Assembly: GCA_963514005.1 (NCBI GenBank) | Contig: OY740814.1 | Location: forward strand, 15,004,001 to 15,068,000 | From: Raja brachyura | Taxonomy: Eukaryota | Length of the DNA: 64,000 nt | Direction of reading: 5' to 3' | Part shown: one piece after another, positions 2,094 to 42,179 of the stretch | Layout of the letters: every line of letters starts with the position of its first letter | Numbering within the stretch: the stretch's first letter is position 1 | The notes under the pieces: generated by a model | Database searches by the model: none | The model's input: only the letters and a program-made list of their open reading frames with translations | What the model was told of the DNA's origin: nothing | Position numbers and translations under genes: made by a program

Positions 2094-2750
2094 GAACTGG
2101 GTCTGAATTTTCAAGAAGAGACATAGGTTGTAGTATTTATTTTCTTTTATCGGTACTGAATCATTGTTAATATGGGTTTGGATAGCACATGGTGCTTAGT
2201 AGGGAAGGAACAATTGGAAGAAGAATCCAATTATCCTGTTGTTACCTCAGTCATGGAATATTAATGGCAAGTTTGGATGAGGGTTTTGTTTCAAAAACAG
2301 TTTTACTATCCCAGGTTTTACTATCTCATTCACTGGCAATAATACAAGCAGTATCTTTGGACTTGATACTAATGAAGTATCAAATCATTTTTTGTTAACT
2401 TTTTTCTATTTCAACAAACTTGCTGAAGAAGTAGAAGATTGTTAGCCATCCATATTTGTTCTTGTATACCGCAACAACAATCTTCGTTTCTCATTTTCTC
2501 CGAAGTAGGAACATCAGTAAAATAGCACTCAGGAGTATACATAGGGTGCACACGGTCGGAACGACAATCTCAGTCACCATCTCCATATGATTGATGAGAG
2601 GATCTAAAAGTCAAAACAAAAAGACATGATGCAAATAATCCTTTCAATTATTTGAGAAATAATTTATTTGCACTAAATCAAGTGAATTTGTGATTAAATT
2701 GTTTTATCATGTGCCCATTCTGTTTTTAATAAAGACTGTGTTACATCTTT
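2094..2750 (+). other. ZWILCH: Putative non-coding terminal (3' UTR) exon of ZWILCH, antisense to the LCTL last exon
   Basis: Acceptor ttgttcttctgcag|2094 can pair with the donor after 521; AATAAA at 2728-2733. Confidence 0.45.
2491..2603 (-). CDS. LCTL: LCTL exon 13 (transmembrane anchor and stop)
   Basis: (D)[36 protein letters not shown]; acceptor tgacttttag. Confidence 0.95.
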
Positions 2751-5700
2751 TGCTGAGAATATTGACGGCAGTGTTGTGCTCTTCTACTTTTTATGGCAAG
2801 ATCTCATGAATGAAGCATTAAATTCCTTTGAAGCACATAAGCTCCAGATAGAGATACAACCTTGACAGGTTTACAGGTTAGAAGTTTGAGCTGTAACATT
2901 GATCATTTTCCAGTAGTAATGTCATAGGAATATAGAAATTATATCTTGAAACCACTCAAAAGTATCTTTGATTATTTGGCTATTAATGTATTTGGATTGT
3001 GAGTGTAAATTTCAGCAGAGCATGAGAGATACTGAGCTAATAACCTCTTTGTATTAAAGCATCCCAAGTATGTCCTTTCCCATTTCTAATTCTCTGACTT
3101 GGGTCCATGTAACCAAATATCTTTGAGTCAATCATTTAAAGAGGTCAGCTACTCACACATGTCTTCATTGCCTATTTTCTGGGGTTTTTTCTTGTCTAAT
3201 CCTTGTTCCCCTTTTCAAGACCCGTACATGCTTACTAAATTGCTCCCCATTGAGCTTGTTTATATCTTGCTGCCATGGGCACCTGGACTCAGTTCATAGC
3301 CACCATCTGTTCTTTCTTTAAAACAAAGCAACTCCCAGATGACGGGGCAGTTGTGTTCCTAGAAAATGGCCCATGTTAAATTTTCCATAAAGTGAAGCTG
3401 AGTTATCTGCAAACAAGTCAAGAATTGCAAGGTGAAAAAAATTAATTTTGTTTATTTACTTTTTACAAATTCTGTAAGTTATATTCCAAATGTCAAATTT
3501 TTGGGTAATGACTTGAGAATTTTGTAAGCGCCGATTTATGATAACTGAATGCTCGTAACATGGGTGCTCTCCGCCAGGTCTATTGGCTCTGTAGTTTCAT
3601 CAAGAACAACAAACCCAACTCTTTCTATCATGGGCATTCTGATCTTCTAATGGCACCCTCCTTGTCTGTCTTGTGGGTTTACTTTTCTCCTCCCCTGCAA
3701 CTCCAACCAGGATCTATACAAACTCACGTAATTCTCTGTCCATCATATTGATTAATTTTGTATGTGTTTATTGAAGTTCTTAGGGCTAGGAGGTAAATCT
3801 GGTCGGCCTCACTGTTTGTACAATATTTAGCTCTTTCTGAAAACTTTATTCTAGCTTTTACCACCTGTAGATTTGCTTTTTCCACTGTCCCCAGCAGGTT
3901 TCTTAGCTTTTTTCACTTTGCAGGTGGCACTTTTGTGGTACTGAGTCCTGTGTTGTCTGTGTGGAGTATGCATGTTACATCCCAAAGACATACCAGTAGG
4001 CTAATTGGCTCCTTTAAATTTCACTTGTGTAGATTTAAGAGAAACGGAGGGAAGTAGGGGGAGGGGAAGGGCGGATGATGATGGACCTGTGAGAGAAAAT
4101 ATGAAGCAGGGAAATAAGTTTTTTGGGGAAGAATGGGTTTGCTTTGAGAGGTGGCACGGATATAATGGGCCAACTGGCTCCTGCTGTTATATTCCAGCAG
4201 CCCAAGAATTTGAAAGCTGTCTGATATTGTGATTTTATAAACCAAACAACTCAACTAGCAGAAAACGAATCATTTTAGTTTAAATGAATAGAATATTTTA
4301 AATGGGAAAGCATTAAAATTAAAATGCACAATTTTTCAAAATATTTACTCAATGTAATTATTTTAGAGAAATTGTAAATATGAAAGGACAAAGTAATCTC
4401 AACCTATTTTAGCCATGATTTGTAACCCAAAAGGCTAATGTGCACATCTTTCTTTGTTGCTTTCAAGACTTGATCTTGGCACTGAAAAAATGACATCAAG
4501 CCCTTAATACCTAAACTTCATCATGCACTGGCCAAACTGTTGCCAAATGTGCCTGCTTCTCATTTGTTCCGTCTGTTCTTCCAGCTGAAAAGGGCAAACA
4601 GAAAAGAACCCATTAGCCCATGAGTGGTCCTCCTATACCTTCCTGCAATTTTAAATATAGTGATGTCATTGTCACTTTAAAAGCACTATAAAAAATGATG
4701 CATAGGTCAACCGAGTGTTTGTGGAAATTAGTAAATGTATGGAGAATATAACCTTGAGTGGTGCAACATGTTATGTGGTGTGTGTATTTAATAGTGTTAG
4801 GATTAGTAAAATTTATTTTTCAAAATATTAATTATTGATGTGTGTATCGTCATGTTTATTTCAAGTAAAGTGTAATAGAATCAAAGAATGCAGTTGTTAA
4901 ACATAAGCCAGTATATTATTAATGGAATCATTCATTTCAAAACATTAACTTTTTTTAACAAAAATGCTTTTATGTAGGGGGAAGGCTAAATTTATTTTGA
5001 ACCCCAGAAATCTTTATCTTAAAATTAACGTTCTTAAAAGGCGGGTCGAGGTTGCAGAATATTGTGATACATGCATTAGATTTTATGGTCCCTTTAAGGA
5101 GAAAAAAAAACAATGGGCTTGCCTGTCCAAATGTGAACTGATTATAAAGTAACTGAAAACTAAAATGAAAAAGGCTACAGACGGCTGGGAAGTGAGTAAC
5201 TTAAATAGTTCGATTTCTAATTGGTTGATGATGTCCGTTGTAACAAATTTCATTTATTCTCTGCATTTTTTATAAAATGGGATATGTTCCTTTTGTGAAT
5301 GGGCTATCTTCATTTTGCAAATAGAGGAATGGTCTGATGTAGCTGCAAATTAAATCTTTCCATCTAGATAGTGGCATTGTTTCACTATTATAGTTTGGTT
5401 TATGCTTTATTTGGAGTTTGGAGTCAAAGCAATAGTTAATTCACTGCTGATAATTTATGTAGAACTATGAAACATTTTGTTGGCTGGAATAGAGAAAGTG
5501 GTGACAATTTCTTAATACAGTCAATTCGTGAAGGTACGGGAACATCTACTTGACCAAGGTAGCCATTTTGTTCATTCACGGTTACCCAACATTTCTGTTG
5601 CCCAGTTCAAACATTGTTTATCATTCAAGTCAGCTGATGTAGTCATTCATTACCTGTGAGTAAATCAAGCTTTGCCATGCTTCTGTTTCCCTGTCCACGT

Positions 5701-8700
5701 AATCTATATTTCAGGGTTATTCTGCAGATAATAACTTTTTGTGTTACCTATGCAATATTTTATAATTGGGATGGTTTGCACTGAATTAATTGATGTGTTT
5801 CCCCTCCCCAAAATGGTTATGAATCTTTTTGATGCCATTGTTAACATCCAAAATAACATGTAAGAATAAAATATAATGTGTCAAACCATAACTTCTGCCT
5901 TCTGCCTTTGACCATATCCCGGAAAGAGTGCCGTGACGGCAAGTGTCTGCAATTTGTTTATAGGTTTCATTTGTCAGTATATTGAGTATAGAAGTTGGGA
6001 GGTCATGTTGCAGTTATATAAGACACTGGTGAGGCAACATTTTGAGTACTGCGTTCAGATCTGTGCACCATGTTAAAGGAAAGATGTTATCATGTTGGAA
6101 AGGGTACAGAGAAGATTTACGAGGACGTTGCCAGGACTTGGCTGAGCTATAGGGAGAGGTGAGCAGGGTGGGACTATTCCTTGGAGCGCAGGAGGATGAG
6201 GGTTGATCTTGTAGAGGTGTATAAAATCATGAGAGGAATAGCTCAGGTACACGCACAGAGTCTCTTGGCTGGAGCAGGGGAATCAAGAACCAGAGCAAAT
6301 GGGTTTAAGATGTACTCTAATTTTGCCCTCTAATCTCATATGTGGGACCTTATTAAATGCTTTCTGAAAGTCCAGGTACACGACATCCACTGGCTCTCCC
6401 TTGTCCATTTTCCTAGTTACATCCTCAAAGAATTCCAGAAGATTAGTCAAGCTTGAAATCCATGCTGACTACTGCTATCCAAATGTGCCGCTATTTCATC
6501 TTTTATAATTGACTCCAGCATCTTCCTCACCACTGATGTCAGGCTAACTGGTTTATAATTTCTTGTTTTCTCTCTCCTGCCTGTCTTAAAAAGTGGTATA
6601 ACATTAGCTACCTTCCAATCCACAGGAACTGAACCTGAATCTATAGAACATTGGACAAAGATCACAAATGCGTCCATGATTTCTAGAACCACTTCCTTAT
6701 GTACCCTGGGATGCGGCCCATCAGGCCCTGGGGATTTATCATCCTTCAGCCCCATCAGTCTGACCAACACCATTTCCTGTCTAATGTGACCCAACTGTCT
6801 TTTCAGGTGTAGTAGCAATTCACTTGAATTTACAATTGAGTGCGCCGCATTGTGTGTTCTCAAAGTAATCTCTTCAGCACTGGAGAACTCAAGAGAAGAC
6901 TAGATGATTGCTTTCTAGACTACTGCACACAGTGACACTGAGCTTCCTTTTGCTCACCATTTTTAATTATCCACTCCCACTGTGATTTTTCTGAGTGTTA
7001 CTCATCTTCTGGGCATGTTGCAACCTTCTAGACTCAAAATTAGCATGTCCAAATTTGGGTATCTTGGTCTTTCCTCCTGTCTTTCAAAACTAGCAGTTTC
7101 TGCATTCATCCAACTGTGATCTTTGACTCATTATTTACTCTCTCCATTAATAGAGCTTGGCCAACTGGTCATATCCGACAGCCCAAACCATAATTTGCTT
7201 CTGGCTGTCACATTGACCCATTTGGTGCAAGGAGATATTCCCTTTGTTCTACCCATCCTTCGCCCACCCTCTCTGCTACAGAAAATGTACTTATTTTTTC
7301 TCATCCCCCATTCTGACAAAAAATCTCAGACCTGAAACATTTACTATTTCTCTTCACACAGATGGTGCTTGACCTGGTGAGTATTTCCAAGTATTTTCAG
7401 CTTTTAATGTAACATTGTCCTTTAGTTTAGCTTAATGTAACCTTTTATGGGATGGTTAGAAAACACCGTATGTGATGCTGTGGATGGCATTGTACTGGAG
7501 AGAGTGCAGAGGAGATTCACCACAATGTTGCCCGATTAGAGGATTCTAGCTATGGGGAGAGATTGGATAGGCTGGGCCCAATTTCCCTGGCGCACAGGAG
7601 GCTGCGGGTCAACTCGAAATAAATATATAAAATTAGAAGAAGCGTAGCAGGGTAGGTAGCGCGAACTGTTTTTCCTATGGTAGGTGTATCATAGAACCAT
7701 AGAAATAAGGTGCAGGAGGAGGTCATTCGGCCCTTCGAGCCAGCACTGCCATTCATTCAGGAACGGGGTACCGATTTTGGATCATGGCTGATCATCCAAA
7801 ATCGGTACCCCGTTCCTGCTTTCTCCTCATATACCTTGATTCCATTAGCCCAAAGTGCTATATCTAACTCTCTCTTGAAAACATTCAGTGAATTGGCCTC
7901 CACTGCCTTCTGTGGCAGGTAATTCTACAGATTCACAACTCTCTGGCTGAAAGTTCTTCCTCATCTCAGTCCTAAATGGCCTACCTTATTCTTAAACTGC
8001 GACCCTTCTGGACTTCCCCAACATCAGGAACATTTTTGCTACATCTGGCATGTCCAATCCCTTAAGAATTGTATTTGTTTCTATAACATCCCCTCTCATC
8101 CTTCTAAATTCCAGTGAATACAAGCCCAGTCGATCCATTCTTTCATCATATTTTAGTCCTGTCATCCCGGGAATTAACCTGGTGAACCTACGCTGCACTT
8201 CCTATCAAAAACAAGGGCATAGGTTTCAGTTAAGAGATTTAAAGAGGACTGTAGTGGAACGTTTTTTTATTCCACAGAGTGATTGATATATGGAACGTCC
8301 TGCCAGAGGAGGGGCGGTGGAATCGGATACATTCACTTTAGGAGGCATTTAGACAGACAGAGTTAAATAGGCATGGCGTGGAAGGTGTGGCCCTAATGCT
8401 GGTGTGGTCAGAACACCCCATTTCTGTGCTGTTTGACTCATTATTTACTCTGGCCAATGCATATTCCAATGTATTTACAGCAGTCAATAATAGTGAACTT
8501 CCACTGTCTGATGCTAATCAAATAGAATGGATGGGCACTGTTACTGAATAACGCTCCTTCCCATATTTTGATAAACACACACAACTGTTCCTTGTCGAAT
8601 AGGGAGTGGGAGGGTGATTACTTGAGTTATATAAATAATGACATCACTTGTTCGTGTTCTGCAAAGAGGCAGAGGGACCTTTGTGTCCCCCATAAGGTGA

Positions 8701-11700
8701 AATATCAACAGCTAGGCAGCCCAGAAAAAGACAATGGTATAATTACTACATTTGTGCTCTGGCTAGAGCAGACATTGATGGGCTTTATTGCCTTGCTCCA
8801 GATGTGCTTCTAAATGCCTTTGTGACGGTTCACCTACCTGCAGCAAGCAGTGCATTGGTGGTTGAGCATGTCTCAGCGGCCTTACGCAGCCAGTTGTCAA
8901 TCTACCAGAGAGAAGTGGAAAATTTGTTTAATCATCATCATTTGGATAAGAACCAACATTCTGCTGCCGTGGGGAGGTAAAACATTGTTCTGGTAAACAA
9001 AACACGAGAGGTCGCCAGTTTCCTGGAATCAGATAATATTCCATGCTCATACTGATGGATTTGGAATTTCTTGAATCCATCAAATCTAAATACTGATAGA
9101 TTTTGAGTAGGAGTTTCTACGTTTTCTAGCAGTGTAGGAGGCCGTTTGGCCCATCGACCCTTTGCCTGCTCTGAGTAATTGTATTCCTCCATATATTTAC
9201 CTTGAAACCTATTTTCCCCCATCAATTCTACCACCCATAGATGAGGGACAATTTATAGTAGCTAATTCACTTGCTAACTCACAATTATCTGTAATGTGGA
9301 TGATACCGGAGCATCTGAGAGAAGCCAAAGAGGTCACAGGGAGTCATAACATAGATAGGATACACAAAAGGCTGGAGAAACTCAGCGGGTGCAGCAGCAT
9401 CTAAGGAGCGAAGGAGATAGGCGGCGTTTCGGGTCGAGACCCTTCTCGTCCCGAAACGTCGCCTATCTCCTTCGCTCCTTAGATGCTGCTGCACTCGCTG
9501 AGTTTCTCCAGCCTTTTGTGTACCCTCGATTCTCCAGCATCTGCAGTTCCTTCTTTAACACATAACATAGATAGCACTGGAGGTCAAAATTGAATTCATG
9601 TTGCTAGGGCTGTCAGACCCAGTTCTACCACTGTATTGTTAAATTATACTAAGTATTGATTTATTCAGTATCAGTACATTCTTTACTTTCATGCCAGTGT
9701 TACCCAATTACCTTTTATCAGGCATAAAATAGCAAAATGTTTACAAAGGATGTAGGAGTGAAATGCACATTGTGAGTTTTCAATTCCACACTTTTCATTT
9801 AAATCAATATCTTTCCCCTCCACTGCTGATTCAACGTGAAAAATAAAAACATCACAAGATGCACTGAATCAGTGTTAGTGAATTCAGGATAGTTAAGCAA
9901 CATGGGAAATAGCACAGCCAGCACATTCAGCTAGTTTCAAAACCTGATGCTCTCTCAACAGTCCATTGATTCAGAGAAACATAAAAAATAGGTACAGGAG
10001 TAGGCCATTCAGCCCTTCGAGCCAGCACTGCCATTCAACAATATACCTCAGTACACGATAGCACTACAATCTTTGCACCACCTTACTCACCATTGTCCTG
10101 TGATGTAAATTAAACAAGTTTTATTCAGATTGATGGTATATTTTACAAGTTATTCACGTTAAAAACTTTAAAAAAAAACTTTTAAAAACCTGTCTGCCCC
10201 TCAGCAGTGTTTCACCCCACAATGATATCACAATGGAATCTCATTTACATGAAAAAATCTCCCTTTTAAAAACCACAGCAGCGTTCCATCTCACAATGAC
10301 GTCACAATGGGATCCCGAATTTCATTTACATTTAAAAAAAAAACGTTTTCAAAATGTTCCGTTGTGGGAGGGGGGGTGGGATAAGGGGGAGGTTTCATTT
10401 AAAAAAGCACACCCAATTTTCATTATTGGGGGGGGCGGTGGGTGTGCGATAGGGGGGAGGTAAGGAATGGGGGAGCCGGGGGATAGAGAGAGAGAGAGAG
10501 GAGGGGGGTAGGGAGGGAGAGGCAGGGGAAACTGGGTGAGGTGAGGTGGGGGAGGAGGGGGGGGATAGAGGGAGAGGAGGGGTGGGTAGGAAGTGGGAGA
10601 TAGAGGAGGGCAGTGGGGATGGTCGGGAGGGAGAGTAGGGGTGTGGGATAGGGGAGAGGTGAGAGGTGAGGAGTGGGGGAACGGGTATAGAGAGAGAGGA
10701 GGGGGGTAGGGAGGGGAGAGGTTATCAAGGGAGGGAGTGACGGTAGAGGAAAGTAAAGGGAGGGAAAGGTGAGGGAGGGAGTGGGGGAGAGGAGGAGGAG
10801 AGGGGAAAGTAGAGGGAGGGTGAAGAGGGGAGGGAGTGCTGGGGGATGAGGGGGAATGGACGAGGATAGGGGTAGAAAGGGATGGGGAGGCGCAGTTGGG
10901 GGAGGGATGCTGTGACGCGCGCCACAACGGGGATCTCTGGCGTCACAACGGGAACGGGTGAGTGGTGGAATATTACGTTGGTGGAACGGGGCCCAACGGG
11001 TCTCACTTGGTCGAGTAATCACTGAAAGTGAGTATTATTGTTGTTAATTATATAATCTGTGGTACTCACTTCTCTCTGGTTGGGAAATCCATTGGAGCTG
11101 ATCATCTTCCTGTAATATTGAACTGAAGCCTTGGGATACCTTCTCTTGTGTTTGCTTTTAAAATCAATGTAGTAAAGGCCAAATCTTTCTGAATAACCTT
11201 CATCCCATTCAAAATTGTCCAGCAGTGACCAGGATGTGTAACCCTTCACTTGAGCACCATCTTTCACAGCTGCAATGTTTCAAAACCACATGTGATTATA
11301 AACACAAATATTTGATAAAGCATCAGGAAATGCTGGAAACTCATCATGATCTCATGAGCATTTGCATAAAGAAAAATTCAGGTTTGCAGACATAGCAATG
11401 TTTCAGTCAGAAAAAAAAGGTTTATGTCCAAACCACTGTGAATTTAGTTTGCTTTGGTTGGATGATACTAAAATAACTACAAATCATCTTTTTCTCAAAA
11501 AGGCTATCAGGATTGATTGTTGTCAATTGCAGCATCTAAAAATATAAGCAGATGTTTATTTATTGATAAGAAAAAAGTAGCCATTTCTCCTATCATTAGT
11601 ATCATCTCCCTCTGCCTTTTGTAATCAAATCAGTTCTCTCCCCTGCTCTAACTCCCTGACTGTCTTCTCCATCTTCACTCTTATGTTCGTTTTGCTCTTG

Positions 11701-14700
11701 CTGACTTCCGTCATGCTCACCCACGTTCTCTTTCTCTGTCTCATCTTTTTTTTTAATCCAGCTGCTGCATGGTGGATTTTGTTTGATTACAGAACGATGC
11801 GGAGCAAACACTGCTACCACCTGCCTCTCCACTGTGATGGCAAATTTGCTGTAAGAATTAGCTTTAGTGGTCTGGGTCTGTATTTTCACACAAGAATGAG
11901 AGGTAATCTCATTGAAACTTTGACAAAATACCTGTGTGCCTTGACAGCTGTAGTCAGGTTAGTTCCATTTGCTGAGGATTTTAATAGATTTCTGAATACA
12001 AAGGGAGTTGATGGATAAAGAGATAGTGCAGGAAAACTATGCTGAGGGAGATCAGCTAAGATTATGATGAATGGTGAAGCAAATTCAGAAAGGTCGAATG
12101 GACTACTCCTACTCCTAATTCTTATGTTCCTCATCTTATTTAGAATCTATAATTTAAACTATTTTTTGCCACTAAATTTCATAACAGCATCCAAATATGC
12201 AAGATATATGGTGGCATTAGTACCAAAATGTTAGATTATTTCTGCAATTAACAAACTTTGTGGCTGCAGGAATATAGAAACATAGAAAACATAGAAAATA
12301 GGTGCAGGAGTAGGCCATTCGGCCCTTCGAGCCTGCACCGCCATTCAATATGTTTTTCTCATCTCGGTCGTAAAAGACTTCCCCCTTATCCTTAAACTGT
12401 GACCTTAAAAATGCAATCACCATGCGGACAGTACCCGAGATCAGGATTGGATCCAGGCTACTGAAGGTGTGATGTACTAATTGCTGCAACAACATCCCTA
12501 TAACCTTCAGCAGACTACCAAATTTAATTTAAAACAAATTCCCGCCTTCTAATTTTTGTTCACTCCCATGGGGGAATAATAATCGCAATTAATGTTTAAT
12601 GTATTATCATGGAAAATGTCTTATGAAGACCTACCTTTAAGAATCTCATTAACATAATTATTCATGTACTGTATTCGCCACTTATCACACAACTCAGTAC
12701 ACTGCCATTTCTCAGACACTCCATTTTCTGTCACATAGATTCTCGGGTTACCATATCGACTCTGAAACAAATCAGAAAACAAAAGCATTGCAAATCAAAG
12801 ATTTATTTCCCAAATTTCAAATTTATTGTTAGTCAAACTCATCCAGACTGACTTTTTATTTTATTTTCAAGCCAGGCTTGACAGAAAGCAGAACATGTCT
12901 TGCATTGTTGACCAATTGTAAAGAAGCCAATTCTGCTGGAGTGAACTATTACATTATGTATTGTTTTAAATGCGTGTGGTGATTTTTTTTTTTGTACAAA
13001 GAGATAGAGATTTCTGAACAAATGAAGTTGCTGTGTGCAAATTCCCGCAACTATGTATGGTGTTTATGACTTGAAAGTAATTTGTTTGTTCAGCACCTTA
13101 GGATCGTAATTAGGGCGAGGAATCACAAAAAGTCAGTATTTCCACAAATAATATGCAATTTATTAGACCAACCTCTTTGTTTTTTTTCCAGATGCACTTA
13201 TCGCAGGAGCTTACACATACCCTTCACCTCAAATCTATGTCAACACAATTAAATGTCTGAAATGTCCCCCTGAAATTTTCTGTAATTTTTTCTGTTTATG
13301 TATTTCATGTTGTTTGTTCTGCTTCATTTAATTAAAACATATTTTCTAAACCTATTTGTGATTTGAAAACGATGCTGGGTATGGTGTTCATCTTCCAAAG
13401 CTTCAGTTAGAAGCCTGCTTCTCAGTCTGTGTAATGACTCCCGGTACAAGCGCGGATAAATTGTCCCCAGCTGACACAATGACAGATCGATGAGGCTTCT
13501 TCAACACCACTTCCAATCTTGTGATCTTGACAACCCAAAAGACCTTGGAACAAAAGTGGCAATGCTGGAAGAATTCAGCCAGTTAAGAAGCATCTGTGAA
13601 GTGAGAAACCAGTTAATGTTTTGGTTATGAAGGGTCTTCAACCCAAAGTATTAACTGGTTACTCTTTCCATAGATGCAGCTTGATTGGTTGAGTTCAACA
13701 CCATTTTGCTTTAAAATCGAACACTTCCATCTTGTGGATGGAATCTAACTTTCCCTCCATTTTGGACCCGTTGCTATTCTTTCATTATCTTTGAGAATGT
13801 TAAAATGAAGGAACTGCCGCATACCTAAAGTACTGAGGGAGTACCACCACCACTAGGACTAGAGTGGCACAGGGATAGCTGACCACCATCTTCCTGGGCA
13901 ACGGGATGAGGTAAATTCTGGAACTTATTTTTTAAGAAGATTTTCAAAACTAATGGTGTATTTGTTCTCATACTTCCATAATACAGCATGAACCCAACTG
14001 TTATAATAAGGGAACAAAATAGAGTTCAGAAATTGTGCTTTTTTCTTTGACATACATATATGCAGCTCACTAATTCCTTATCCACCTCTTCCTATTCCAC
14101 CTCTTCTCTGTAGCCTTGCAAATTATTCCTTACCATAAATATGCAGTACTGCAGACGATATGGATCTGCCTTGACCACATCTACAGATAATGCCCCATAG
14201 ATTCCAACCTAGCTATGTACAAAAAAAAATCCTCCTGTGCCTTCTCCCTTATTTTATGCCCATAACCTCTATTTCCCGGGGCCCTTCAACAGTGATACAT
14301 CCTCCCACTATCAACTCTGTCCTGACCCTTCATCATTTTATATACTTTAATCTTTTCTGCTGGAAAGGGACAGTTGCAATTTCTCCAATCTTTCCTTGAA
14401 TCCGTAGAGCCTCACTCCTAGAAATATTCTCATCAATCTTTTCATGGTCCTTTTTAATGTCTTCACACCTATCCTCACAGGATAGGAATCTGAGATAGAG
14501 CTTGTTATATTCTTTCATTGTTAGATTTGTTTTATCCTTGTTCTCAGTGAAGGGAAGTATTTACTGGTGTTGCACTTTGCAGGAAGTTTCCATCCTATCT
14601 GAGATCCTAACATTTAATGAGCCTTTCTCTGAAGGTGGACTAATGCACCATGGATTGACAACGCAAACTGGAGGCTGAAAAGCGTAGTTAGCAAACTGGC

Positions 14701-17700
14701 GCCAAGGAACAGATCAGAGTTAATAACGTCCTTGGTTAGTGCTCACTCTGGCTTAGCAGGGCAGCAGTACTAATTCAGAGTAAAGTTATACAGTGTTGAA
14801 CAAACAATGGCCTACTGAATGGAGGTGTAAGGATATGAGTGTTTATAAAGAAAGAACACATTTATGTAGCATGTTTAATAACTCAAATTGATTTATTCAA
14901 AGTATTTTCTAGCTAATTAAATGTTTTCTGCAATGATGCAGAAAACAGCCCATTTGTGTGTTCTACGATCCCACTATCAGCAATCCGAGGAGGAGTTAAA
15001 TTGGTTGAGAGATAAATATAGACCTGAAAACTAAGAGAACACTATTTTTGAAGTATTGCAATGGGGTTTCTTGTTTCTTCCTGGAGATGGGCTCTTGTTT
15101 AATGTCTCAACCAAATACCAGATCTGTTCTGATGAGACACCGCCTCAGAACCACACTGGTCAATTATGTTTTCAGGTTTTTGATGTTACACTTGGCCCAC
15201 ATAGAACACTACCTACTGGGTGAAGGCTAAATGTTGAATACTTGTGGCTTGAGGTTAATTCTGCAAAACATTTTCGGATTTGTCCTTGGATCAGTTGACT
15301 GATTGCACATTCGACACCCACTATAGAGTTTGAAGACCATTCAAGTTGAGTACTGAGATGAGACATTAAACCAAGATGCCATCTGATTCTCTTGGGCAGA
15401 AGGTGCTCTCTCTGAATCCTAGCCAAATGTTAACCATCAGTAAAAGAGTACGCGTAGTCATCATCAGATTGCTGTTTGTAGGACTTTCTGTGCACAAACT
15501 GATGGCAGGTTTGAGAAAGGAGGACTTTGGCCTATAGTATGTTTACAAGTCATGGGATCATGAAATAAATAAATGTAAATAATTTGTCATTACTCCAACG
15601 AAAAATTAAATTACGTGTCACCAATTTGTAGTAAATACCTTTATAAAATTCAGGATCCTTCTGAAACCCCAGGGTACGGAGTAAAGCCATTCAGATCCTG
15701 GGTCTGGCCACTGTGGGTCCACGAGTTCCACTAAATCACGATCAGTGTGATAATTAGGCCCCTTGCTGTAATGGTAATTCTTGTGAGTGATGTAACGGGT
15801 CGTGAAGTGACCCAGCCCAAAAAAGTCTGCCGTGCCTTTGATGAAGTGTTTCTCCTGTGGAGTGAAGGCAGGCAGTCTTGAGTTGCCCAGGCCTTGCTGT
15901 GAACTTTTTCTCCCTGTTGATGGAGTAAACACCGTGGTTATTTAGAATTAGTTCAAAGATTAGATGTTCTGAACACTACCATTGGCTCCAATGCTAAATT
16001 TGCCCAAGTCTTGAACTGACCCCATTTTGTCCTGGATTTCATGTTGTGACATTGAATTGCATTGTCTTCGTAAAAATAGTTTTACATTGCTCAGATTCAA
16101 TCAAAATCTTTCACATTTTATTAAATTGAAAGAGTAGGAATGAATGCAATATAAGTAGCTGGAAATAATTCCGACCAGCAAAGTAGATAATGGACAAGAA
16201 GAAAAACTGTTCCTGTTGAATATATAACAACATGAAAATAATGTATACATGCATTTCCGATGTCATATAGGACAATGTATCTTTCCCAGGCAATACGTCT
16301 GTGAATCCCTTCTATCTACCACTTTAGGATTTTTTCGCTTCCTGTTTAAAATTCTTTAACTGATGCAGACACAGGTGCTGTAACATCATGAGTTGCCATC
16401 CACTGTTCATGCATGTCGTTATGATATGATGAATCTCTGCCTTTGCATGCCTAATATAAAGCCAGGCTTAAATCGGATGGCATTTACATCCATACTGCGG
16501 TACTTCTGGGGTCACATTTTCCACGTGGCCTACTAAAAGCAGCAGTTAACTAGGGAAATTAAAGAACTGCAAAATTGGTGCCATTTTAAATTATATTAAG
16601 AAAACAAAATACATTCTCTAACATTTGCCTGGTTGCATTTTAGACCCCTAAATAACCCATTGGAAAATCAGAATTATATGTGTCTAAACAGATTAATTTA
16701 CTCTCTGTTTTTAGTTTATTGTTGTGTCAGGTTAAGTTGCTGTATAGGCTGTGTGTGCGTATGTGTGTATGCATCTGTGTGTGTGGAGTGTGCACTCACT
16801 TTATTCCATCCTATTATTTTATACTTACCAATACAGTCTTTCATGACTTGAGGGTAGTCGCCATTGAAAATAGGGTTGGCAAACCAGCCAAGATTAAATT
16901 GGATGTATCGCTCAGCAGCCTCAATATCCTTCTGGCTTGTAATGTCGACTGGATCTCCCCACTCACTTGTGATGGAAATACCCACCATGCCTTTAATATT
17001 AAAATAATGTATAATAAGTACCACATGAATAGTCTTTTCAATTACAATATATGTTTCAGTTGTGATTTTTATATATCAAACTGTTTCCTGAGTCAAACCC
17101 TCCCGTTTCATCAAGCTCTTTAAAACCTCTCACCACCAATTTAAAGGAGGATAATCCCAATTTTGCATAACTCCACAGAACTGCTCAATCATTAATACTC
17201 ACTGAAATATAACACAATGTGCTGAACTTAGACCTTTCTAATGACTTTAATAGAATTATTTGAGTCTGGAGCTTGAGTCTCATAAATTCTACTTGAAACA
17301 TCACCCTATCACCTCTGTTGATCTATATAGCAGAAAGTAGTCAGATCATGCAATATACTTTACACTAGAGGTTCCAGTTCACTCCTGTGCTACTTATTTG
17401 TTTTATGTTTGAGACTTGAGAGCTCGATACCTTTTTGGCGACTACGCCAGAGTCTGTCGTACGTGTGCCAAGCTGTCGCATGGGCCTGTGAAAGAGAAGT
17501 CAACACCAAGAGTGTTACTGAAATCATGGCTTCTTCACATTTTCCTCCCCGACAACCTTATTTAAATTTTCCAGCTGTCTTGCCCACCAAAAGGAACAGA
17601 AAAAGCCCTTCCTCCAAAACCGGACATCAGAATGTGGTGAGTAAGGCTTCTCCCATTGGTGACCCTCGACCTTGGTCATGGATTGAAGCCACATTGTGGG

Positions 17701-20700
17701 AACCCACTTGACTGATGCCTTGGTGCAATACTGAGGCAGCGCAGCACTGCCAGAAGTCCTGTACGGTATATGGCATATCCTATGAGGCTGAGAATGCATG
17801 TTCTGCTCATGTCCTGGTCTCAACCACTGGCAAAACTGATTAATTCCTCATGTCTGTTGCATTTTGTTTTATCCAAATTGATTGGAGAATGCTACATGAG
17901 GACCTCGTCAGATCAGGAAAGATGCTGTCTGCAAGCAAGTAAAGCAAAACTGATGATCCACTAATGGACAACAAGATGAACAACCTGGCTCGGACAAAAC
18001 TCTGAACATTAATAATCCATTGTTTGTTATTTGCACTTTATCAGTTTATTTATTCATGTGTGTATTTATGTATATAATGGTATATGGACACACTGATCTG
18101 TTTTGTAGTCAATGCCTACTATGTTCAGTTGTGCTGAAGCAAAGCAAGAATTTCATTGTCCTATCAGGGACACATGACAATAAACTCACTTGAACTTGAA
18201 CTATCTGTTTTCTCAGAAGTCCTCATGGATTGGAATCCAGGTCACTTGGTTCTGTTGACTGTGCTTCTATTTAACTCACTGGCCCCAATCCTACATCCCA
18301 CATCCCACTGAACTCACCAGGGCCCCATTGTCACATTCCCTTTAATCTCATGTAGACGCTGTTCCCATACTGCCTTTAATCTCATGAGGACCCCATTCTT
18401 ATACTTCTTTTAAACTCACCAGAGCTGCATTCCCACATCCCTCTAAACACCCGATTCACTGAAATGTTTATCATAAAGCGAATTAAAAGTTAGTTGGTAT
18501 TTCAAAAGGAATAATAACATCTGCCAGTCTGGCACCACCAACGTACCAAGTGCGCTAGATTATCAGAATTTAGTGTTCTTTTATTTCATTGTTAGAAACT
18601 TACCTTAATAATGTTATGTGCTGCCCTATAACCTCCTATTCCATTGAGCTTTAACCCTGGGGCATGCTGTCCAACCTCGTATCCATCGACAGCTATGGAC
18701 TGCAATATATAATACATAAGCATCAGTTGATGGTAGTCTAAACATATCCCACTTATTCCACTGTGATCTAAAGCTCCTGAATTGTACTTAAATTTCCCCA
18801 TGATGGAGCTGCAACCATGTAGGCCAGCAGCAGCTATTTTCCCAGACAGGGTCTACCCATCTTTCTTGTTTGCAGTCATTCAAAATGAGTGGGAAAGAAA
18901 TAAGCATTTGTGCCAGTTATTAGCCTGGCAAGGGATATTTGCTTTGTGGTCTTTTGTCAGAAAGTTTATAAGAAAAGTGTTGACAGCAGGATATCTGCAT
19001 TGAGCAAAACAATGATTGTGTCCGAGCTATAGGGAGAGGTTGAGTAGGCTGGGATTCTATTCCTTGGGGAGCAGGAAGTTGTGGAGTGATCTTATAGAGG
19101 TGTATAAAATCATGAGAGGAATAGATTGGGTAGATGCAGTCTCTTACCGAGAATAGTCGAATCGAGGACCAGAAGACATAGGTTTAAGGTGAAGGGGAAG
19201 AGATTTAATTGGAAGCTGAGGGGCAACTTTCACAGAAAAGGTGGTGGATATATGGAACAAGCTGCAGAGGAGTTGAGGCAGGGACTATCCCAACATTTAA
19301 GAAGCAGTTAGGTACATGGATAGGACAGATTTGGAGTGATATGGACCAAACACGGGCAGGTGGGACTAGTATAGCTGGGACAGGTTGACCGGTGTGGGCA
19401 AGTTGGGCCGAAGGGCTTGTTTCCACGTTGTATCACTATATGACTCTGTTTGGTTATAGAATTCTCATGTGAGATTGAGAGGGAGATCAATAATGGAGGT
19501 GGAGCTTGAGAGGTGGGACGAATGGGTTAAACAGGAAAATGCCATGGATAATCCTACATAAATTTGCCAACATAACACATGGGATAAACTGGTAATTAAC
19601 CAATCACAGGCCACTGCCTGCGACGAGGACATAGCATTACAGATCATAAACAGTTTGTTGAATTGGTGAGAATTTTGCTTAATTCATTCTCAAAAAAAAA
19701 AAATTTGAGTACTAATTAATTTTAGATCATATGGTTTCATTTTTATACTTTAAATTTTATTTCTTACTTGTGCTTTCAATTAATATATGAAACAGAAACA
19801 CCATGGAGAATAGTGTAAGACAGGCTTCAACTGAATAATATAGAAAAGTATAGTTGGACAAAAATGGTCTCGTCATCATAATTAATATTTATTTTGAAAC
19901 CATTTTCAATAATTTTAGTTGTTACTTTCAAATAGAGTTCTGAACACATGGCAGCGCTCTACATTTGGAGTATGAAAGGTAGTTGCCATGTTTCCAAAAC
20001 AAAGCATGTCACTGCACCTCAGTAGTGTGAAAAGGTACTATGTAAAAGCAAGTGTGAGCAAGTGTGGGCTTCTTAAACAGTGTTGCCTCACTTTTGCAAT
20101 GGGCTATCATGCTACCAAAGCATAGAAAACTAAGTGTCTAACATTAGATTGAAACTGGATCCAATAAGAATGGAGAAATGTTTAATTATACAAATGTGAG
20201 CTTTTTTTTAATGGGGAGAGTTCAGAGCCAATTTGCTTATAAACAAACAACTGAGAGCATATATACAATTGTGCAATGTGGAAGAGTTACATTGTTAGAA
20301 CAGATACAAATAAAATAACTCTAATCATGTACAGAACAGTACAATTTGGCCCACAGTGTCAATGCTGTACATGATGATAAGTTATACTAATCTGCTCTGC
20401 CTGTATATGTGATCCATATCCTTCTATTTGTGCATGGCCACATACCTATCTAAAAGGCTTTATTTGCACAGCTTTTTAAGGAATACTGGAGTCAAAATTT
20501 ATCAGTGCTGAACAATTGGCGACTGATACCTCTCATCTCCCAGCATTGCGTTCCACAAGTTAATGTTCAATTAATCAAAAAGCATTATGACATAAAACGT
20601 ACCCAAGGATTGTTGAAAGTAATCCAATGTTTCACTCGGTCACCAAACTTCTCAAAACACAGGTTGGCATAATCATTAAAGAAGTTAATCATACTACTGT

Positions 20701-23700
20701 TCTGCCATCCACCATATTTATTTTGGAGGACCTAAAAATAATAGAGATAAATACAAAATGAGAAACAAGTGCCATTTAATGCATTATAACTTTTCTTCTC
20801 AAACATGCTGTAGTGCATACCAATTTCTAGTGGGCTAACATGACCTTAGATGAACAAAAAAACAAGCCAGTCATCAGACGTAAACTGATCAATTGGTGAA
20901 GGTATCTGCAGGAAGAGCATGGCTGACTGTACAATAAATCTTCGTTTTAACGGACCTCCTTAAAATGGATTTCGGTTATAGCGGCGGACCCGTTGACGGT
21001 TTCTAGCTTCACCGCCTCCCCGGCTGGGCTATTTTCAGGTGCACTGCCGGTGCTGCCACCAGCCACTTCCAGGCCGGCCCACACCGTTTTCCCTTGCCAC
21101 TTTCAGGCTGGGCTAACAACCCCACCCTCAGTCGCTTCCAGGCTGGGCTGCCAACACCATCTTCCTGGCCGCTTTTAGGCTGGGATGTCGACACCACCCC
21201 TGGCCCACACCGCCTTGCCCAGCCGTGTCAAGGCCAAACCTACTGCTGCCTCAGCCGGCCCACACAGCTTTCTAGGCCTCTTTCAGGTCGTGCCTGCCGC
21301 TGCCGACCTTTACCTGCACTCCAGCCGCATGCAGGCCGGTACCAACGACTCCACCAATCTTAACCTCTCCTTTGGCCAGCAGGCCCGGGCCATCAACTCA
21401 CCTGGAATCCACGCCCCGTTGTGGACTGAGAGTCTGAAAAAGGGTCTCGACCCAAAACGTCACCTATCCATGTTCTCCAGAGGTGCTGTCTGATCTGCTG
21501 AGTAACTCCAGCACTTGCAGTTGTTTGTTTCTGGTCCAATATAATGATGGTTTACGGTACTTACATTAACAGGGCCAGGTGGCTGTACAGTAAAGGGAAT
21601 TGTGGACCCCATCCACAGAAATTGGAAACAATATTTTAATAACCCAGTATGCCCTAAGAGAACCATAAATGTACAGGCTGTGAAAAGAGATGGAGAGAGA
21701 CGCCTTTGTTAAGATTAACACAGCTCTTTTCTGAACTCCTTTCCCAAGACAATGAAATTCTTGACAGTAATAAAAAGGACTCCAAAAGGCTAGTTTCATT
21801 GCCAACTTCTTTGTAAATATTAAATAGTCAAAATAAATATTGTTAGAGCATTTCAACAGAGTTCATATCCGAACAGAGTGATTATAATCTCAATTCCACT
21901 GTGTCTCGTGGGACGGTTTGTTCAAGTTACATATCAGTTCCAATAAACCCCTGACGTAAAGGCAGTGCATTCAAAAGGCGAGAGCGGGTGGCGGGAATAG
22001 ATTACATTTGGAATTTTCTAATCTTAAACTTAATTGTGACTATATGTTAAAGCTGAATATAGCCACGAGATTGTAATTCAAATTGTGGCATTGATACAGT
22101 TTTAAATCAGGCAGCAAAGTTAGTCTGGTCTGAAATCCTGTTTGTTTACACGAAGGAAGAGTGAGATGTGAAATGTAGTGTAATGTTATAGGAGAAGTAA
22201 CAATGAAATCAGTTCATAACTGGCAGGGTTTTACCTTAAAAGACATTGCAGCCAGGGAAGGGTGACCTGATCAGTCATCAAAGGTTATAGATCATTAGAT
22301 TATCTGCATGTTGACCCCAAATTGATCATGATGACATGCTCCACTGATAGCACATAAGGGTAGGGAAGGAGTTCGTTATGTCAGCTGTTACATTGTTGCC
22401 ACTGTAGTCTGTCAACCTCAGAGATGTTAAATCCTATATCACCACAGAACTAGGAATCCTGATCTATTGTCATTATTAAATCTCTTATCTAACACTCAGA
22501 TAGATGGAGACACTAGTCCGACAGTAATACAGGAACCTGTGTGTAACACAGCTGTACTAGAGCTAGAACGTCTGGTCCCTGGTTGTTCAGTCTGTGGTGG
22601 GAAGAGTGGTAGCAGAGTTATTAAAGTTGGTCACAAGTACCCAAATCTGAAAAGGTAAAATAAAGCCAGACTTTTCACATACAGGGGGAAGTGCAGAAAT
22701 TCAGATTTGCCATCTTGTGGAGAGGCACAATATATACATTCTGATGTAATGGGGCAAATGTATGCTCACAATCATATTGAATTTTTAAATGATTATTGAG
22801 ATGGTCGATTCCCCCACTTTCCATTCCCTCCACCCCACCCTTGCAGATGCTCCTGCGGAGAAAGATTGTAATCATTTTGGGTTGCAATGACAGAATTCAG
22901 TAGATTAAGAAAGGGTTGTAGCATCACAGTATTCTGAGTGACACGACCACTTTCTCTAAAAGCATGGTCCTTAGGACGAACACAACAGTCTCCTCCTGCA
23001 CAGGTTAAAATTAACCATGTGGATGAGGCCTATGCTCTTTTATTTTTATTTATCTGTGGGATGTGGCTATTGTGTATAATTGTTGCCTTTTTGTGACTGA
23101 CATTCAGCGGAAGAGTCAGTGCTCATTTATTTGTTTGTTCTCACACTACAGACAAGGTTGGGTTGATGTCTCCGTGAAACTCTGCAGTCCCTTGACTGAA
23201 ACTGTACCAGTATTTCCTAGATCACATTCAAACATTTGGTACAGACCTGTGGAAGATCCCAGTGGTACAGGGTCACTATGGGCAGAATTTGGCTCTCCTG
23301 TAGGGTGTTTATCAGTTCATTATAATAGTCGATTCCTTTGTCATTCACTTGCTCGGCTGGAGAATTTTGAAAGATAAGAAATAGATTATAATATACAAAT
23401 GAAACATTTATTTGTAAATACAATCTTTGTTATACCTGACTGTAACTTTCCGAGAGTGAGAACCTCCTCCCATAGTTATATCAAGACTCTTATGTAGTGC
23501 TAATACTGCTAGGCTATTGTATGTGGCAGTGCCGGAGATCAGATTTGGGAGTTGATGTGGTGGGGAGGAAAGGTTAGGAGATGTCATTGCTCAGCAGGAA
23601 TTTTTAATACTGAGCTAGTATCCCAGCATCAGCAAGTTTGGCAATCATGGATGTACACAGCTATTAACTGACCTCACTCAGGATGATAGATTTATCCTCA

Positions 23701-26700
23701 TTACTCAAAGCACAGAAACAGGGAAAGAAAACAACCTTAGTATAATCCTTAGTTATCATTCAGTACCCATAAATTTGTACAAGGTTGGCGGAGAGTAGAA
23801 GGGTGTCAGCCAAGGTTAAAGTAGTGGGCATAACAGGTATTTTTTCTTAATAATACAAAATAATGATATTTTCAATTCTGTCCGCCCCATTACAGGAAGG
23901 ATGTGTAGTGGGCGGTGCAGTCGGGGGAAACTTTTTTTCAATCTCTTACCTTGCCAGAGATGCGATTGTTTTCCGGATTGTATCTCCGGTCGCTCTGCGG
24001 CCTAACATTGTGGAGCTGGAGCCTTGCTCGGGACTGACTGTGAGCCCCACCACAGAGCGTGGACTTACCATCGGAGCCGATCCCTTGCCTGGGCTCGATG
24101 CTCCAACTGCGGCCTGCGCCCTTTAACATCAAGGAGCTCGCAGTCTCGGGTTGAGACCGACGTCGGGAAGCTCCAAAAGCTGCACAACGTTCGACTAGCC
24201 CCAACCCGGGGTAGATCACCTGCCATGGGGGAGCTGAGATTCCCCCCCCGATGCAGGAGCTTGATTGCCCCGACGAGGAGGCCCGCCGCTGGCTACGGGA
24301 GAAAGATCGTCCCGTCAACGGAAGGCCCCCGACCCGTGGAGAGATTGAACTTTTTTATCCTTCCATCACAGTGAGGAATGTGGAGGAGTCACTGTGGTGG
24401 ATGTTCATGTTAAAATGTATTTTGTGTGTTCTGTTGCTGTTTATTGGTATGACTGTATGTTGCATGTATGTTGCACTGTAATTCCTCGTATGTTGCAAAA
24501 CATACTTGGCTAGTAAAGTATGATTATGATGCCATCCTGGTTCTTCAAACCTGGTCTGTCACAGCTGTGGGACAAATGCACAGCTTCTTTCCCTTCCCTC
24601 ACAGGGTGACTGAGGCCAAATGCTTACTAAGCAGAAAATGTTTAAAGGGGGTTCCAAACCAAAAAGTGTAAAAAGAGAGATTTCATATGAACTCATAGCT
24701 CAGGACTCTGCCCTTTGGCCCATAAACTTTGTGTCGAACATAACATCAATGTAAACTTCACATCTACCTCCACATGGTCTATATCCCTCAGTTCCCCGTT
24801 CATGTCTCCCTGTGCCTTTTAATCATTACTATTATATCTGCTTTCGAAAACCTGCACATCCTGCCTATAATGTGGCGACCAGAAATGCAAACCATATCTC
24901 CTTGTAATTGATTTGTATTACAAAGTAAAAATACCTGCTTAGTCCCAGACCTTTTACCCGGCCTGACACCCATCCACTCTCTGCCAATCATGTGCAAATC
25001 TGTGGATGCTGAAGTGCAACAAAAGATTATGCTAGAGTTAATTTTCTCCCTGTGAACAAGGAGGGAATCTGCTCGCTTCTGACAGCATTAACATTAGCTT
25101 ACTAGCATTCAGAGAAGGTTGACTCCCTTCCCAGCAAGATAGTAAAGTGAGAGATGTTACCTTTTATCCCCGTTGGTATAATTCGAGGCCAGGATATAGA
25201 AAAGCGATAATGATTGACTTTTAACTCCTTCAACAAGGCAATGTCCTCCTGTAATAAAATCAGGTGTTAACCAGGCTTTGCATGCATGAGGAAAATTATG
25301 AAGATGTTACTGGGTTTAGAAGGTTTGCTGGACAGGCAAGGAATTCTTTACCTGGAACATAGGAGCCTGAAGGATTATGTCATAGAGGTTTGTAATATCA
25401 CTAGACCAAGAGGGACACGTTGGGTCCCTGTCACACGGGAGGGTTGGTCCCCGAACGCAATATTCCACCACTCACCCATAGCCCCCAACTGTGCAGCCGC
25501 GGCTGACGGGTTGCCGTTGTGATGCCAGAGATCCCCGTTGTGACGCGAGTCACGGCAACCCTACCCAAGTGCGCCTCGCGATCCCTCTTCCTAATGCTAT
25601 CCACCATTCCTCCTCATCCCCAGCACTTAACCATATAACCATATAACCATATAACAATTACAGCACGGAAACAGGCCATCTCGGCCCTTCAAGTCCGTGC
25701 CGAACACTTCCTCCCCCTCCTCTTCACCCTCCCTCTTCTTTAACCTCCCCTTTTCTGCTCCCCTACTCCCTCCCCCACCTCTCCTTCCCCCTCATTTCCC
25801 GACCCTCAGTCACTCCCTACCTCCCTCCATAACCACTCTCACCTCCCTACCCACCTTGATGTGAATGTAAGGTGGAAGCTGCAGTAATTTTTTTAACTGA
25901 GTTTTTTAATGTAAATGAGATCCCATTGTGATGTCATTGTGGGGTGGAACACTGCCGATGGGCAGTTTCTGTAAATGAGATCCCATTGTGATGTCATATC
26001 TCATTGTGATGTGATACGCTGCAAACTGCCAGTGCAGATGGAAGAGATCTTTTCAAAATGGGGTTTTGTAAAGTTTAAAATGTCAATAACTTGTAAAGTA
26101 TACCATCAATCTGAACAAATCTTGATACTACACACCACAAGACAATGGTGAGCAAGGTGGGCCAAAAATTGTTGGGAGATGTCATTGCTCAGCTATCGTG
26201 TAATGTTTTGATGTAATTCCGGACATCAAAGACAGACAGACTTAATAACAAACAATTGTTAAAGAAGGAACTGCAGATGCTGGAGAATCGAGGGTTACAC
26301 AAAAAGCTGGAGAAACTCAGCGGGTGCAGCAGCATCTAAGGAGCGAAGGAGATAGGCGACGTTTCGGGTCGAGACCCTTCTTCAGACAAACAAGATGAGT
26401 GTTTTTGTAATATAATAGACCAAGTGGGACCTGTTGGGCCCCGTTCCCCCAATGCAATATTCCACTACTCACCCGTTCCCCCAACGCAACCCGTTCCCCC
26501 CATGCAATATTCCACTACTCACCCATAGCCCCCAACTGCGCAGGCGCGGCTCATTTCCCCTCATCCCCCAGCACTCCCTCAACCTCCTCTACACTCTCCC
26601 TCTTCTTTTCCCTCCCCTCCCCACCCTCCATCACCTCTCTCTCAATCTCCTTTCCCGTACACTTGATCTCTCCCTCCCTCCCTCCCTTCATAACCCCTCT

Positions 26701-40200: not shown

Positions 40201-40537
40201 AGATTAGTTTAATTCGGCATCAGATTGAACACAGACATCGTGGGCCAAAGGGCCTGTTCCTGCGTTGCACTGTCCTATGTTCTAAGACTGGACAGATGAA
40301 TGGTAAGATAGTGGCAAGGATTTGTGCATTTTATCTGGGACATCACCTAACCTGGAAATATTTGATTGAAAGGGATTCCATCTCCTGGCATGGCACAGCA
40401 CCACAAGAGGACAATCCACTAAACACAAACCTTCTTTGTGGATTTACCTTGAGTCGGTTTAATTGATCTTGTAAAGTGCTTTTGATCTTCAGTAGAGCTT
40501 CCTCTTCTTTTTTCAGCTCTTGTAGCCGACTCAACAT
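37223..40537 (-). CDS. SNAPC5: snRNA-activating protein complex subunit 5 (SNAP19), 106 aa; coding exons 40448-40537, 38656-38751, 37223-37357
   Basis: MLSRLQELKKEEEALLKIKSTLQDQLNRLK|VEELALRSMI...|SLMQVDNENAINQTQLQL...EEEEEEEYN*; all phase-0 GT-AG junctions. Confidence 0.95.
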
Positions 40538-42179
40538 TCTAAGCCTCACTGTGATTTACAGCTCACCTGCAAGATGTTTAATTCACTTGCTCTCAATCAT
40601 ACATTGCAGTCCTACCAGGAGCAGCTATCTATGTGTGAAGACCAGAACAGATATGCAAGAGCAGCTTCGGAAATGTAGACTGCTAATTAAAGACAAAATA
40701 GCAGTATGTCATGAAATAAAGGTCTTTTCACGAGTCAATCAATACCTGAAAGAGAAAAATTGTTCAGTACTTGGAGGAATCACATCCACAATATTAGTTA
40801 ACCTTCACCGACTTATGAGAATCCCAGGTCATTCAGAGCTTAAAATGGAGAAGGAGCATTTATGATGGCTCCAAGTACTTTTGTCAGAAGCCTGGTACAA
40901 ATGACAGGAGTGCGTTAGCATCCAAACTGTCCACCCATTCACTCCCCCTGTGGAAGAATTTTCAGATCTCATATCGACCATTGACCTTAGGCATCTAGCA
41001 AAGGAAAATTAAGCCTGTACACTATTTCTACACTCTTCATCCGCTACCCACTTCAGCTTAAATATCCAATCTGAGTAAACACCAACTTTAGAAAGCTATG
41101 CTACATTCTAATGGAAAGGTTTAAAATGATTTTTAGGAAGAAATTTAAGTAAAGGACTGAGAACCAAACCCATTCATCTTTGAAATTAGAAGCAATACAT
41201 TTTGTAAACAATGGTGGAAATCTTAGGTGGTTCCCCAAAAAAACGAGTTTGTGGATGATGAAGGCACATATCTGGCGGTTGGTTAACTGAGTTGCAATAG
41301 AGACGAGGTATGACGTAACTGACCCTGCTGTCAGTGTGGAGTTTACATGTTCTCCATGTGACTAAGTGGATTTACTGTAAATTGCCCATCGTGTGCCAGT
41401 GAGTAGATTCGGGGGAGAGTGAGAAGGGGCATGTTAACAAGAAAGTTGGGAGAATAAAATAAGTCAGGGAAGGGTTGGTGTAAAAATGACAGTCGCAGTT
41501 GGATATTAATTCAGATCCGTTACTCCAGGCCTTAGGATTTCTAGCACAGTAATATGGCAGCTGCACCGTCACAGTTTAAGGTGTAGAAGGAATCACAGGA
41601 AGACACGAGTGCTGGAATAAGTCAACGGGTCAGGCAGTATCTCTATAGACAACATGAATTGGTGATGTTTCGGGTCGCGACACAAGACACTGCGGATGTT
41701 GGAATCTGGAGCAACAAACAATCTGCGGAAGAAACTCAGCGGGTTCAGCATCATCTGTGTAGGGGAAGAGATTGCAGGGTCCTGAAGCAGAGTCCCATCG
41801 CAAACATCCACAATTCCTTTCTTCTTACACATGCTGCTCGACCCGCTACGTTCCTCTAGCAGACTGTTCGTTGCAAGAAGAAACCGTTTCCACACTGTTG
41901 TCAGGGAGGGAGCTCCATAACTCAACAACGTTTAATGCAGAGGAAAAGCTTTATCACCAAATCCACACTAACAGCTGCAGGTTAATTCCCTGATGAAAGC
42001 CCTGGGTGGCGACGACACATGCCGGTCACACACACACCTTGCTGCACCGCAAACTTATCATTCACCACGCCCCGTCTTTAACCATCAGACTTGAAGAAAC
42101 CGGTGCAAAGTACAAGGTTTCGCTGATTCTGTGAGCTTGGGCGATTCAGTTGCAGCTCGGGGTTCTTTGCACCCTCAGA

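Follow-up and report, generated by a model that had tools for sequence, protein, structure and literature searches.

We analysed a 64,000-nt stretch of the Raja brachyura genome (assembly GCA_963514005.1, contig OY740814.1, positions 15,004,001 to 15,068,000 of the forward strand), hereafter the window, within which all positions are counted. The coding span of LCTL (gamma-Klotho) was located on the minus strand at 2491..29963 and consists of 13 constitutive exons and one cassette exon. The 13-exon model that skips the cassette encodes 566 aa, of which 561 are identical to XP_032906537.1, a RefSeq model of Amblyraja radiata. The cassette-included model encodes 553 aa, and 547 of the 553 are identical to XP_032906538.1, isoform X2 of the same species. 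As expected for an LCTL orthologue, the protein has a signal peptide, a single GH1 domain (PF00232, matched at residues 36-503 in a domain search run on a 99%-identical homologue) and a C-terminal membrane helix followed by a short tail. A tree of the shared LCTL part, built from 36 chosen rows with no paralog outgroup, followed the vertebrate groups, which fits this assignment. The canonical GH1 motif at the acid/base site is TFNEP. In the skate protein, TFNNP was found at 198 and TENG at 409-413; the acid/base Glu is replaced and the nucleophile Glu is kept. N-E-P at the acid/base position was found in 0 of 328 records. Since the acid/base Glu is replaced, the soluble LCTL domain may more likely be a binder than an enzyme.

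SNAPC5 exons (PF15497) lie upstream of LCTL at 37226-40555 on the minus strand, and the same adjacency was seen in two fused teleost gene models. The window also contains, on the minus strand, a Tc1/mariner-type transposase in two frames (56321-55412) and a 568-codon single open frame with N-terminal ankyrin repeats (61520-59817), which resembles ANKRD34. At exon 3 of LCTL, a tandem acceptor was found at 25248 / 25245 (minus strand), where the RefSeq relatives take the upstream AG. LCTL models with a short N-terminus, 380-394 aa long, are found repeatedly in coelacanth, skate, turtles and birds and represent either a real isoform or incomplete models; one of these short models was without a signal peptide.

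A sequence-only reading of this DNA had proposed that the last LCTL intron (6.2 kb) holds a strong acceptor opening a phase-1 frame of 74 nt, with gtatta behind the stop codon. All of these features were confirmed when the sequence was re-read at 4584-4511 on the minus strand. The exon (4511..4584, minus strand) sits between exon 12 (8838..8901, minus strand) and the membrane exon, is preceded by ...tttcag, and encodes (A) followed by 23 residues, which form the tail of the soluble form. Its own stop codon, TAG, makes up its last three bases, and the invariant end W-P-V-H-D-E-V-stop occupies 4511..4534 (minus strand). The acceptor region (4585..4616, minus strand) contains a candidate branch point, CTAAT, at 4616-4612, a polypyrimidine tract and CAG. 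With 18 pyrimidines in 20 positions, this tract ranks first among those of the 13 acceptors in the gene model. The donor GTATTA (4505..4510, minus strand), right behind the stop codon, matches the consensus at 5 of 9 positions and is the weakest of the 13 donors. The coding part of the last exon (2491..2603, minus strand) encodes the membrane helix and a short basic tail, and becomes 3' UTR if the cassette is included. Using donor 8838 and acceptor 2603 in the gene model, we reproduced the predicted lengths of 553 aa and 566 aa.

The cassette stretch is single-copy, with 1 match in the 2.7-Gb genome. When the 6.2-kb intron was resampled 2000 times with a Markov model, 8 of the resampled introns combined a strong acceptor with a phase-1 frame whose last four residues were KDEL-like, and none of the 2000 also carried GT after the stop. 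In the real intron, one KDEL-like-ending frame was found among 20 strong acceptors. An AG-started frame near 3405 was resembled by none of the tails listed. RNA structure around the cassette was also considered and was rejected (z = 0.27; 108 of 200 shuffles folded equally well).

Splicing was examined in sequencing runs. Six of ten runs were compared, and none of the ten is annotated as RNA. Two of them, X1 and X2, come from one sample, in one study, of a relative that is about 96% identical in the intron. Their contigs contain joined exons 10 and 11 as well as the cassette joints, and X1 and X2 were therefore treated as RNA. In both, a 132-nt contig runs from the end of exon 12 through the complete cassette into the start of the membrane exon, and its depth was 17.3 in X1 and 14.5 in X2. 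The joint 2603-4511 in this contig skips 1907 nt and has GT-AG borders on the minus strand. A 58-nt skipping contig was present at depths of 18.3 (X1) and 15.8 (X2). The loose ends of the inclusion and skipping contigs match the end of exon 12 letter for letter. The DNA runs X5 and X7 cover the stretch in one piece with no splice joint. In X3 (probably DNA) and X4, the joint table was filled by repeats, and the splicing call rests on X1 and X2. Coverage over 4694-5700, which was none in X1 and one piece in X2, was not used as evidence. The predicted splice switch was thus borne out, as junctions from donor 8838 to both 4584 and 2603 are present in the RNA contigs of the relative. In this single sample, about half of the spliced molecules were of the inclusion form, contig depth being a poor measure of expression.

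It had been suggested that the exon could act as a terminal or a cassette exon. Since the inclusion contig is spliced onward to 2603, the exon is a cassette exon and not an alternative last exon; the second half of that suggestion stands and the same contig speaks against the first, a minor unspliced form still being compatible. Both inclusion junctions and the skipping junction were found in RNA, in one sample and two runs, and none was found in DNA. The intron downstream of the cassette (2604..4510, minus strand) was covered by RNA contig pieces at a depth of 3-8, which represent retention or unspliced RNA and were not joined to the cassette in any listed contig. This depth fits some retention at the weak donor, and a retained-intron form would encode the identical protein. 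Nonsense-mediated decay is triggered by a stop codon if the last junction lies more than 50-55 nt downstream of it. In the gene model, the stop codon ends at nt 1662, 0 nt before the last junction, and the inclusion mRNA should therefore escape nonsense-mediated decay. The features of a poison exon were not found, and the 3' UTR contigs were unbroken over 1526-2605. These results make it virtually certain that the 74-nt exon is real and spliced, and we consider it highly likely that it yields a protein. The combination of a strong acceptor, a weak donor and conserved flanks would make its inclusion adjustable.

The conservation of the tail was investigated in 430 sequences retrieved by homolog searches and cluster listings, which include a few non-LCTL sequences; the tail count leaves out the peptide of the window itself and a single unspliced Logan frame. 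An HDEV ending was found in 42 of the 430 records, representing at least 38 species by the name columns. The holders are 7 of 31 chondrichthyan records, 6 of 78 amphibian records (from Ascaphus, Rhinophrynus, two Pelobates and Pleurodeles), coelacanth, bichirs, paddlefish and teleosts. Among the matches listed, no Xenopus or neobatrachian record had the ending. It was found in 0 of 59 turtle, crocodilian and bird records, the three groups that make up the amniote sample. A tail-focused search with residues 337-380 of the N-terminally short LCTL model without a signal peptide scored 5 candidates and found 2, isoforms being hidden in 90% clusters. A search of the ESM Atlas gave GH1 clusters only.

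The records contained 28 distinct tails with lengths of 19, 21, 24 or 25 residues. The linker varies freely, and W(-7), H, D, E and V are identical in all 28. From sharks to amphibians, the tail ends in WP(V/L)HDEV. The sequence-only reading had pointed to a similar WPVHDEV ending in teleost predictions, which would make it ancient, and this agrees with the presence of the ending in both teleost paralogs, sharks, rays and amphibians. Gains and losses of whole codons in the linker, together with the fixed W(-7) and HDEV, argue for selection at the protein level; the keeping of the frame in 28 of 28 tails carries a bias, since only annotated isoforms were counted. None of the 43 records whose ending is KDEL-like closes with HDEL, although it is one base change away. 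In the midpoint-rooted tree of the shared part, built from 36 chosen rows, HDEV occurs in sharks and rays, in both teleost paralog clades and in amphibians. This distribution is consistent with one origin of the cassette before sharks and rays, teleosts and amphibians split. The absence from the sampled amniotes suggests loss, in annotation samples that take in up to 15 members per cluster and from which eye RNA is often missing.

A signal peptide directs a protein into the ER. The soluble form keeps the signal peptide and, at the sequence level, has a free C-terminus. Inclusion of the cassette had been predicted to remove the membrane helix, and the peak 19-residue hydropathy after residue 30 was indeed 0.51 in the soluble form vs 2.63 in the membrane form. 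A 74-nt stop cassette between exon 12 and the membrane exon would thereby lead to a predicted soluble gamma-Klotho of 553 aa. An AlphaFold2 model of a 99%-identical homologue (38-row alignment) had a mean pLDDT of 44, with values below 50 over 337-553. The D-E-V end could be read as a class III PDZ ligand; this reading was ruled out because the full-length protein has a signal peptide.

The ending resembles KDEL/HDEL signals in having H-D-E at -4 to -2 and a free C-terminus in a protein with a signal peptide, and it differs from the signals as described in having Val, not Leu, Phe or Met, at -1. A search of the skate genome for the KDEL-receptor family scored 17 candidates and found at least two receptor loci; mammals have three such receptors (PMC2140024). 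The skate receptor exon examined keeps W120, R159, Y162, W166 and R169 of chicken KDELR2. In the receptor structures as described in PMC8248988, His at -4 stacks on W120, salt bridges are made by residues -3 and -2, R47, Y48, R159 and Y162 are bound by the last Leu together with the carboxyl group, and there is no contact at -6. The H-D-E and free carboxyl end of the LCTL tail match these described contacts. HDEL binds 10-fold better than KDEL according to a 2021 abstract. A review ranks the ligands KDEL > HDEL > DDEL > HDEV and lists HDEV as a low-affinity ligand with weak binding in vitro (PMC12328878). Its order of KDEL and HDEL conflicts with the 10-fold HDEL advantage given in that abstract, and HDEV occurs 0 times in the main text of the paper that the review cites for the HDEV ranking.

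The sequence-only reading had placed the isoform in the ER lumen. Three points speak against efficient retrieval there. HDEV fails the Prosite motif [KRHQSA]-[DENQ]-E-L, as quoted in PMC2140024, at -1. In the screen described there, all AKDEX variants were made and ER localisation was named for L, F, M and weakly I only, which leaves Val outside the named effective last residues. HDEV is also the weakest of the four ligands in the review ranking. We propose instead that the invariant HDEV would bind the KDEL receptor weakly, leading to ER-Golgi cycling and partial secretion. His at -4 would partly offset Val at -1, making retrieval leaky, and the soluble domain without the acid/base glutamate would bind, not cut, glycans or partners. 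We judge the chances to be about even that the soluble form undergoes such weak, leaky retrieval by the KDEL receptor and is partly secreted.

The soluble form may instead be freely secreted, with W-x-x-H-D-E-V docking another partner and the likeness to KDEL incidental. Candidate docking sites would be the inactive glycosidase cleft of the soluble form itself, the membrane isoform or a protein of the lens surface. KDEL/HDEL signals, as described, need no Trp at -7, and the invariant Trp of the LCTL tail (28 of 28 tails) lies outside the receptor contacts, which are lacking even at -6 in the described structures. In addition, -1 is always Val and never Leu, and the reporter screen does not name Val as effective. 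Against this, H-D-E stands at -4 to -2 at the very C-terminus and matches the described receptor contacts, chance seldom gives a KDEL-like ending (8 of 2000 resamplings), and HDEV is listed as a KDEL-receptor binder (PMC12328878). We regard free secretion with another partner as possible but rather unlikely. The supplements of a zebrafish lens proteome (two files, PMC12232379) contained 0 occurrences of HDEV, the LCTL entries there being protein-level rows.

It is improbable, in our view, that HDEV is an efficient retrieval signal and the isoform a stable ER-luminal resident. Mouse KLPH was reportedly found in the ER by Ito in 2002, and this has been counted in favour of such a resident. The presence of a signal peptide without a membrane helix and the 10-fold gain in affinity that His at -4 brings in HDEL point in the same direction, but the mismatch to the Prosite motif at -1, the naming of only L, F, M and I as effective and the last place of HDEV in the review ranking (PMC12328878) all stand against it. 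Leaky retrieval with partial secretion is the reading we carry forward.

The cassette and about 110 nt of intron on each side form a conserved island (4403..4696, minus strand). In organism A, two contigs over 4403-4696 each differed at a single position, out of 228 nt and 235 nt respectively, as compared with 3.5% in the downstream intron (Poisson P ~0.003 each; the contigs overlap and are not independent). Four out-of-frame teleost predictions read GQCMMKFR, the same as skate in that frame, which means that the synonymous positions of the last six codons (P-V-H-D-E-V) and the stop are fixed. Three of the four continue with Tyr, which indicates GTA after the stop. A TGCATG hexamer (4522..4527, minus strand), an RBFOX-type motif with a putative role here, overlaps the V-H-D codons; GCAUG is described as bound by RBFOX. 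Because of this synonymous conservation at the exon end, part of the HDEV invariance may be RNA-level, and the exon end probably serves both the peptide and a splicing element. That the exon is mainly an RNA-level switch lowering membrane LCTL, with a truncated protein that has no job of its own, would explain the fixed third codon positions, the hexamer inside the V-H-D codons and the conserved flanking introns, but we consider it very unlikely because changes in exon length keep the frame in 28 of 28 tails (annotated isoforms only, a bias), the stop position avoids decay rather than triggering it, and the exact KDEL-like end would be a coincidence.

The isoform had been described as hidden, which does not hold, as RefSeq models already carry the HDEV form. 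These include XP_032906538.1 (Amblyraja radiata X2), XP_038668855.1 (Scyliorhinus canicula X2), XP_064422022.1 (Latimeria), XP_073762540.1 (Danio rerio lctla X6) and XP_069078983.1 (Pleurodeles X4), which belong to the same isoform and tail class and are automatic models. In the literature searched, which included few subscription papers, no published description of the HDEV isoform, the cassette structure or the tail was found. LCTL and HDEV were not found together there, and the one match for HDEV in connection with the KDEL receptor or with ER retention was the review PMC12328878. Mammalian KLPH (gamma-Klotho, Lctl) is the same gene, with a single GH1 domain, a type I membrane form and a lens role, and the available text of PMC13168428 describes it as a type I membrane glycoprotein only. 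The 'secreted' mRNA of alpha-Klotho is a similar case, in which a Klotho-family member obtains an anchor-free form by a stop-introducing splice choice. That alternative mRNA is reported to be a target of nonsense-mediated decay, whereas the LCTL stop sits at the last junction and the new LCTL tail has been conserved across jawed vertebrates. Switches of this kind are known and the sequence is in databases, and the cassette structure, the tail and the function appear to be undescribed.

Gamma-Klotho is needed for normal lens sutures in mice (PMC13168428). It is the least studied Klotho, and the literature, as far as it was accessible, treats LCTL as a membrane protein only. We tentatively propose that, since the origin of jawed vertebrates, LCTL may have had a second major product, a soluble one amounting to about half of the spliced mRNA wherever the gene is active, whose W-x-x-HDEV end would be a weak ligand of the KDEL receptor or a ligand of another partner. 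In the lens, a decay-proof cassette would set the amounts of anchored, ER-Golgi and released forms of a pseudo-glycosidase, a control that would have been lost in amniotes. The isoform is present in zebrafish lctla, and much of the product may be soluble in fish and amphibian models, which matters for the design of knock-outs, the choice of antibodies and proteomics. The HDEV tail also offers a natural test of the KDEL code, in which a non-canonical last residue has been held from sharks to amphibians although a single base change would give Leu. The reach of these findings is limited in that the sequence is already in databases and the isoform is absent from all amniote records sampled.

A 39-nt in-frame stretch was found at 2745..2783 (minus strand), in the intron between the HDEV cassette and the membrane exon. 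It resembles a 45-nt cassette (EEQR..AANILRLIH) of bony fish, amphibians and turtles, with a tblastn E of 0.06 in the intron. Its acceptor is poor (8 of 20 pyrimidines), and no joint to it was seen in the RNA contigs. The 45-nt cassette was absent from 31 of 31 chondrichthyan records and was kept in 5 turtle records, all of which are without the HDEV cassette. The 39-nt stretch is probably a relic of this second cassette, which would date the 45-nt cassette to early jawed vertebrates too. In Ascaphus truei, model X1 continues past HDEV, out of frame, into the 45-nt exon and the membrane exon, and this would agree with a competing donor lying 4 nt upstream of the one at the stop.
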